DNA of 60,081 bases, filler included, from Dirinaria sp. TL-2023a (Eukaryota): the NCBI GenBank assembly GCA_051941275.1. It is 2 parts of 2 records of this genome, joined end to end, with 100 filler letters (N's around TTAATTAATTAA, not from the genome) between each part and the next. Parts side by side here need not be neighbours in the genome. Positions count along the whole stretch, not along the records: positions 30,092 to 60,081 come from JAVEBF010000108.1; 1 more part is not named here. The stretch is one strand, 5' to 3'. Shown here piece by piece: positions 56,648 to 57,249 of this stretch. The position numbers were made by a program, and so were the translations under genes. Positions within the stretch are counted from its first letter, which is position 1. Every line of letters begins with the position of its first letter. Under the pieces are notes generated by a model, which was given only the letters and a program-made list of their open reading frames with translations, made no database searches and was not told the origin of the DNA.

Positions 56648-57249
56648 ATGGCGGCACCAGCGTCGGCGACGATGAAGGCCTTTGCAGGCGATTGGGTGGT
56701 GGTGGGTATACCGTCGCATCACCCTCCCGGCAGAAAATCAGCAGCTAACGCACTTTCTCGCTGCAGAACAAAGGGCTCTCCGACGACCTCGACCCAATGC
56801 TCAAACTTCAAGGCATAGCCTGGTTAGTACGTAAGGCTATCACGACGCAAACCGTCACACTGCACGTCAAGCAGTATGAGAAGGATTCCGTGGATACCCT
56901 AGAAACCGGCATGACTGGCGCCGCCGGCCTGAAGCTTGCAACTGAAATCCGGCCCCTGGATTGGGAATTCCGCGAGCGCGCGAACCCTGCATTCGGGACC
57001 ATCAACGAGAAGACGCGGTATATTCAGGAAGCCGAGATTGAAGATGCGTTTCTGAGGGAGGGATGGTGCCCAGGAGAGGATTTGATGGAATGCTGGGGCG
57101 AAAATCAGCAGAGGGGTTGGACCGGGAATCAAGTTTGGGGGTTTGCAATGGTGAAGGGGGAGCGGAAACATGTGAGGAAATTTGTGGTGGCGAAGGGAGA
57201 GAAGGTTGTGAAGGTCTCTTTGGTGTATGATTTCGTTAGGAAGCTGTAG
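56648..57249 (+). CDS. Fungal lipocalin/calycin-like protein (PydY-like, often annotated 'LCCL domain'), about 178 aa, 1 intron (56702-56766)
   Basis: MAAPASATMKAFAGDWVV|NKGLSDDLDPMLKLQGIAWLVRKA...RPLDW...GWTGNQVWGF..GERKHVRK..LVYDF. Confidence 0.75.

Follow-up and report, generated by a model that had tools for sequence, protein, structure and literature searches.

A predicted FABP-type barrel protein encoded beside a PksA-clade polyketide synthase in the lichen fungus Dirinaria sp. TL-2023a, with a promoter motif common to acyl-supply genes

According to our analysis, the gene at positions 56648 to 57249 of the DNA examined from the lichen fungus Dirinaria sp. TL-2023a encodes a protein, P0001 (a "hypothetical protein" at NCBI), which is predicted to adopt a FABP/iLBP-type barrel and for which we tentatively propose a non-catalytic carrier role in the cytosol, the cargo being an acyl-tailed product of the adjacent FAS-PKS pair or a fatty acid; we give this reading a little less than an even chance. 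Carriage of a greasy pathway product, rather than ring closure, is favored because the gene lies beside a pigment-type PKS cluster and has a promoter motif in common with it. The window, i.e., the whole stretch of 60,081 nucleotides that was analyzed, consists of two contigs fused by an artificial 100-nt spacer (a run of N with TTAATTAATTAA, positions 29992 to 30091). Positions 1 to 29991 belong to another, unrelated contig (C107), the genes of which were disregarded as they are not neighbors of the cluster; a divergent pair of PEP-hydrolase-like and UPF0261 genes was observed there at 17267 to 19991.

The sequence-only reading had proposed a 178-aa gene, and this was borne out, since the product translated from 56648 to 57249 comprises 178 aa and is identical to P0001. 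On the + strand, exon 1 (56648 to 56701, ATG at 56648) encodes MAAP...GDWVV, which includes strand A with its G-x-W triplet; it is followed by a GT..AG intron of 65 nt (56702 to 56766) and by exon 2 (56767 to 57249), which encodes a helix-turn-helix lid and the remaining barrel up to the stop codon TAG. The intron is exactly spliced out in contigs of all three RNA runs inspected, which represent one lichen sample of a relative about 94% identical to the Dirinaria sequence. Both peptide motifs quoted earlier were found in the protein (G14-x-W16..NK.LSD..D..L.LQG..W..RK41 and W136-TGN-QVWGF144). The RNA sample yields a single spliced contig of 732 to 890 nt for the gene and short pieces for FAS and MFS, one of them intergenic; such contigs cannot rank expression between genes, and uncovered parts were regarded as uninformative.

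The AlphaFold2 model of P0001 has a mean pLDDT of 96.6, and the calycin barrel for which an AlphaFold/Foldseek check had been suggested was obtained. DSSP assigns to the predicted model ten antiparallel barrel strands forming a beta-clam, with a helix-turn-helix lid after strand A (helices 27 to 32 and 37 to 45) which is aligned with FABP lids. The best VIA match is ReP1-NCXSQ (Z 17.1, rmsd 1.7, 131 residues aligned); the 50 VIA matches listed are all iLBPs (Z 16.2 to 17.1), and iLBPs also make up the Foldseek matches listed throughout. A wide search independent of Foldseek retrieved iLBPs up to Z 16.3, and the true lipocalins listed are at Z 5.2 to 6.1. By sequence alone, the family profile reaches FABP/CRABP chains in the PDB with a best E value of 3.3e-6; single-sequence searches with P0001 in Pfam, NCBIfam, and the PDB returned no match, the Pfam lipocalin/FABP models hit none of 101 family members at E<=0.1, and an Atlas feature search gave FABP clusters only at 0.79. 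P0001 contains no strongly hydrophobic stretch (maximum 19-residue mean, 1.02). The predicted fold, the Z scores, and the profile match therefore make P0001, as modeled, a FABP/iLBP-type calycin and set it apart from the lipocalins proper; the earlier label "lipocalin-like" is right as far as the predicted calycin barrel is concerned but not for the subclass. A strict lipocalin, with eight strands, a C-terminal helix, and no lid, was rejected, as the model lacks a C-terminal helix and has ten strands with a lid near the N terminus.

P0001 shares with the animal iLBPs (FABP, CRABP, CRBP, ReP1-NCXSQ, LBP-8, and UnaG) the ten-stranded barrel, the helix-turn-helix lid, the G-x-W triplet, and the terminal tyrosine, and the similarity, detectable by profile, amounts to Z values of 16 to 17 and an rmsd of 1.7 to 2.5 over about 131 residues. 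It differs from them in its length (178 aa with insertions versus about 133 aa), in an identity of only 10 to 18%, in its fungal host, and in the strand-J arginine, which is apparently replaced, other conserved polar residues being present instead. The triplet, which a passage of PMC10197203 gives as an iLBP feature located in the first motif, corresponds to G14-D-W16, the last position being W in 51 and F or Y in 31 of 100 relatives. As for the strand-J Arg-x-Tyr clamp, Y172 is kept and residue 170 is Leu in our manual alignment register. Since Leu170 appears to sit where the strand-J arginine of FABPs would be, the carboxylate clamp may not be preserved in its classical form, and the conserved R155 might act as a substitute. 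Passages of two reviews (PMC3796463 and PMC10197203) state that iLBPs occur only in animals and arose after animals split from fungi, a statement on which the assignment of P0001 bears.

Residues Q33, E78, R80, Q140, W142, R151, and R155 are 98 to 100% conserved in 118 relatives, and Y172 is 97% conserved; from the i, i+2 alternation along the modeled strands, these polar and aromatic residues are inferred to line the cavity. Such a cavity-facing pattern would also suit a pathway enzyme, whether a cyclase, an anthrone-handling protein, or a coupling protein, similar to the small lipocalin-like proteins of pyrrocidine/hirsutellone pathways, although we deem this improbable. The fold can catalyze, as exemplified by Oplophorus luciferase (Z 13.8) and the OlmO spirocyclase (Z 8.2), both matched in the wide search, and the single anthrone-oxygenase-family gene found in the genome is located on another contig. 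However, PT and TE domains are already present in the PKS, the invariant residues are also found in conventional copies outside clusters, and the top structural matches are all binders. Aromatic NR-PKS products are also not known to provide an obvious pericyclic substrate, which we counted against an enzyme. Of the functions initially put forward, a new cyclase, an anthrone-handling protein, or a carrier of hydrophobic products, the last is retained; the cyclase role found no support in this analysis.

In work attributed to Ohashi in 2021, PydY and the lipocalin-like proteins of the pyrrocidine/GKK1032 (hirsutellone) pathways are said to be small fungal calycin-like cluster proteins, which reportedly act on PKS-NRPS polyenes. 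Unlike PydY, which is reportedly set in a PKS-NRPS cluster, P0001 is encoded next to an aromatic NR-PKS, a FAS pair, and an MFS transporter, and no solved PydY-like structure was among the matches listed in the fold searches.

P0001 belongs to a family distributed across filamentous ascomycetes, with 1022 members among 2628 candidates at 90% clustering and 655 clusters at 50% identity clustering. UniRef names in this family are mostly "LCCL domain-containing" or hypothetical, with one "lipocalin-like domain-containing," and P0001 keeps all the invariant residues of these proteins. Because a Pfam scan of P0001 and 101 aligned family members detected no common Pfam family and no LCCL match, the "LCCL" name looks like a mislabel, and a FABP-type binder gives this conserved unnamed family a testable identity. 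In the literature consulted, mainly open-access, we found no fungal FABP-fold family and no such gene in a PksA-type cluster. What is new here is the FABP-type assignment, the place of the duplicate at a PksA-clade cluster, and the common motif; the family itself was known, though uncharacterized.

A first metagenome scan using P0001 alone detected no relative; the metagenome loci analyzed are the best 80 of 124 confirmed matches, 40 of the 80 being at least 5 kb long. The family is usually set among housekeeping genes, with ILV3 in nine non-redundant loci, a mitochondrial carrier in six, RNase P p30 in four, and RFC or NPL4 in six, as found by neighbor Pfam scans of 157 of 201 non-redundant frames, a set that leaves aside the majority of those that overlap the family gene or run antisense to another frame. 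In the nine ILV3 loci (L036, L037, L041, L042, L045, L049, L052, L061, and L067), ILV3, which encodes dihydroxy-acid dehydratase, forms a head-to-head pair with the conventional family gene, and L061 also carries two AflR-domain genes 5 to 8 kb from the family gene. When the PKS, FAS, MFS, and ARP4 frames of the window were used in tblastn, a PKS was found near the family gene in only one of the 80 loci, and this was a reducing one; ARP4, FAS, and the MFS of the window were absent from all 80 (40 of them at least 5 kb). An ARP4 neighborhood as the ancestral home of the gene was rejected accordingly (0 of 80), and the sequence-only reading, which had pointed to ARP4 synteny as a check, was not refuted by it. 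In one locus, a family member is situated between a reducing PKS and an NB-ARC/HeLo-HET-s pair (L112:3-7013 and 11225-20535), with opsin and carotenoid-oxygenase genes further on. Since the family is spread over filamentous ascomycetes and mostly set among housekeeping genes, membership in it is uninformative on pericyclase activity.

The same housekeeping setting, seen for the family in other fungi, favors a somewhat unlikely alternative to the carrier for the FAS-PKS pair, namely, that P0001 is a general lipid-binding duplicate, sharing a promoter with the MFS gene within a lipid/acyl-CoA supply regulon and having no role for the PKS product. In agreement with this, the P0001 gene is clearly transcribed in the RNA sample, with only scraps of FAS, and according to PMC3153176, the dotB and dotD genes of Dothistroma are co-regulated via common promoters and are probably not pathway genes. 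Against it, the motif and the cluster position belong to the P0001 copy and not to the conventional one, P0001 shows numerous changes, specific to its clade, at sites that are conserved elsewhere in the family, and the linkage to the PKS is apparently retained in two relatives.

The conventional copy is the second family member in the genome and is split into halves at the ends of contigs C853 and C117; the stretches examined around ILV3 and around RNase P in the same genome were free of family copies. Its N-terminal half shows a median identity of 55% to 12 orthologues from lichens and related fungi, versus 42% for the corresponding portion of P0001, and the two copies are 35% identical over this half. 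In a quick tree, the conventional copy groups with the lichen orthologues, and P0001 forms with three close relatives a long-stemmed clade (support, 99) in which it has the longest terminal branch. Because of this grouping and of the long stem, P0001 is, on sequence grounds, a divergent, fast-evolving duplicate, and it differs from the other family members in being a second copy at the edge of a PKS cluster with a promoter motif of its own.

We also considered a redundant duplicate in decay, which landed at the cluster edge and whose upstream motif would serve the MFS gene only, and deem it very unlikely. It would explain why P0001, with 77 to 83% identity to its orthologues, diverges faster than the PKS, with 90%, as well as the longest terminal branch of the clade and the finding that, among 25 codons differing between the P0001 gene and the RNA relative, 16 are non-synonymous, a proportion compatible with relaxed selection too. 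However, none of the listed differences falls at an invariant residue, the open frame is intact in all four members of the clade, and RNA of the relative shows transcription and splicing of the gene.

As for linkage to the PKS in other genomes, ENA lists a 44,002-nt contig and a 59,862-nt contig, each for both the gene orthologue (P0002 and P0155) and the PKS orthologue (P0178 and P0300). Judging from these equal sizes, the two genes appear to lie on one contig in two relatives. Two distant PksA carriers could be checked, Brigantiaea and Hyphodiscus, and in both the best-scoring family member is on a contig other than that of the PksA-clade gene. The co-occurrence with PksA that had been suggested as a check in other fungi therefore apparently holds in the two relatives but not in these two genera, and the gene-PKS link is lineage-limited, given these separate contigs and a PKS near only one of 80 loci.

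The cluster contig of Dirinaria, C108, carries in order the PKS (−), FAS-beta (−), FAS-alpha (+), MFS (−), P0001 (+), and ARP4-like (+) genes. The NR-PKS (P0298, 2311 aa, positions 30278 to 37413) has the domain order SAT-KS-AT-PT-ACP-ACP-TE; its bit score is 1570 with norsolorinic acid synthase, compared with 993 for CTB1. A FastTree of 42 KS-AT regions, picked from the 120 matches listed and their cluster members, places it within the aflC/stcA clade (support, 100), where it joins Protoblastenia, Hyphodiscus, and Penicillium hordei in a sister subclade. The "norsolorinic-type" label is fair for such a PksA-clade enzyme linked to a FAS pair. The divergent pair consists of FAS-beta (HexB-like by position; 38913 to 45524, ends approximate) and FAS-alpha (HexA-like by position; 46271 to 52140). 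Its FAS-beta gene is one of three in the genome (C657, C1050, and C108), the one on C1050 having an aminotransferase-class-IV gene upstream in place of a FAS-alpha. The MFS gene (53968 to 55752) encodes a DHA2-type, EmrB-like transporter with 14 TM segments; with its ATG at 55752, it is the divergent partner of the P0001 gene, as had been noted. The ARP4-like, actin-related gene (58302 to 59987), the promoter of which lacks the strict motif, likely marks the cluster boundary. At the other end, the distance from the PKS stop codon to the start of C108 is about 190 nt, and further cluster genes may thus lie beyond this contig.

In its core, this arrangement resembles the aflatoxin, sterigmatocystin, and dothistromin clusters (PksA/HexA/HexB and AflT/DotC), with a PksA-clade NR-PKS, a divergent FAS pair, a DHA2 MFS, and TCG-N5-CGR sites, and, as in the dothistromin mini-clusters, a regulator is not adjacent. 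It differs from aflatoxin-type clusters in the sister subclade of its PKS and in the composition of C108, where we found no AflR-domain regulator or tailoring gene on a contig that ends just after the PKS, and where a FABP-fold gene is present in addition.

The 11-mer TCGGACTCCGA is located at 56316 to 56326, 332 nt upstream of the P0001 gene and, in the other direction, 564 nt from the MFS start codon, and again at 38030 to 38040, 617 nt upstream of the PKS ATG, the match being a 12-mer when the 5' T is counted. It is a palindromic CGG-N3-CCG site and fits the AflR sites TCG-N5-CGA and TCGSWNNSCGR given in PMC7344883 and PMC3153176, the latter consensus being that of PMC7344883. The FAS-beta/FAS-alpha divergent promoter carries a 10/11 copy, CCGGACTCCGA, at 45691 to 45701 and a second AflR-consensus site, TCGGAAAGCGA, at 45900 to 45910. 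The common 11-mer reported by the sequence-only reading is thus present at both places; however, the two-site evidence alone is at chance level, because, when non-coding DNA of this genome was drawn 2000 times as two stretches of matching size, some 11-mer was common to both in 917 cases. A 10-mer common to three non-coding stretches was obtained in 27 of 2000 draws. The strict consensus occurs four times in the three cluster promoters (3.07 kb), with a background of six sites in 102,766 bases (0.058 per kb; Poisson P, 3.6e-5), and the loose consensus six times, with 1.95 expected (P, 0.015). Motif counts across the window are within the range of shuffles, no genome-wide enrichment was detected (25 sites versus 30 for the control), and the motif is absent upstream of the conventional copy of this genome. 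It is also present in 3 of 14 windows upstream of other SAT domains, two of these occurrences being inside open frames, and in 3 of 41 upstream regions of family genes from other fungi.

Five of the 25 genomic sites of TCGGANTCCGA are upstream of the PKS, the P0001/MFS pair, ACC1, a mitochondrial carrier, and ACL1/ACL2, and the remaining ones are near mixed genes or inside coding DNA. The exact 11-mer lies about 900 nt upstream of ACC1, where there are two consensus sites (L138:379 and 852; C995), and 310 nt upstream of the carrier gene, which is beside citrate synthase (L139:3061; C603) and which we take to be YHM2-like. Four further lipid-synthesis loci had been chosen in advance for this check, and one of the four was positive, the ACL1/ACL2 divergent promoter with TCGGATTCCGA (L152:1592; C987); the promoters of the primary FAS pair, the second FAS-beta, and one desaturase carry no motif. 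Further sites are near AUR1-like and LCAT-family lipid genes. The motif behind the co-regulation proposed initially thus recurs in the three cluster promoters but is not private to the cluster, and its presence at ACC1, ACL, the citrate carrier, and near the AUR1-like and LCAT-family genes also suits a general lipid binder. From its distribution in the sequence, the site likely marks a regulon of acyl supply and polyketide synthesis, for which the binding factor is putative, and it suggests a common regulator for the precursor-supply genes and the PKS cluster.

For the carrier of the FAS-PKS product that we prefer, the mechanism might be as follows. A putative Zn2Cys6 factor, AflR-like or other, would bind TCGGA(C/T)TCCGA and co-induce citrate export, ATP-citrate lyase, acetyl-CoA carboxylase, the FAS pair, the PKS, and the MFS/FABP-like pair. 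The FAS would supply a short acyl chain as the PKS primer, and the conserved polar residues of the barrel would hold a poorly soluble acyl-anthrone or acyl-anthraquinone, or spilled short fatty acid, which the barrel could then hand over to membranes or to the MFS. If this role is true, it would show by what means lichens cope with acyl-tailed pigments of low solubility and how a biosynthetic cluster can recruit a barrel protein from a housekeeping family. A bolder version, which we judge unlikely, would have true FABP/iLBP homologues in filamentous ascomycetes and the lichen duplicate recruited as a dedicated chaperone of a hexanoyl-primed anthrone, with one Zn2Cys6 site also controlling citrate export, ATP-citrate lyase, and acetyl-CoA carboxylase; if true, a single regulon would join precursor supply, polyketide synthesis, product buffering, and export. 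As PMC8533459 indicates that depside PKSs encoded elsewhere may be primed by the HexA/B pairs of lichens as well, the ligand of P0001 could belong to another pathway.

The five AflR-domain genes of the genome are all on contigs other than C108. The best of them, a Zn2Cys6 gene at L024:7816-9225 near the end of contig C114, is a candidate regulator with housekeeping neighbors and a promoter at the contig end. By Pfam, aflatoxin-type tailoring genes were absent beside the other motif sites, except for an SDR (C562) and a P450 fragment (C2919). A further copy, TCGGTTACCGA, lies about 1.2 kb upstream of another NR-PKS (L154:7514; C544), possibly a second PKS of the same regulon. Contig C255 (L027-L028) harbors a second NR-PKS cluster, in which the PKS has two ACPs and is accompanied by an AflR-domain gene, an SDR, and a scytalone-dehydratase-like gene.
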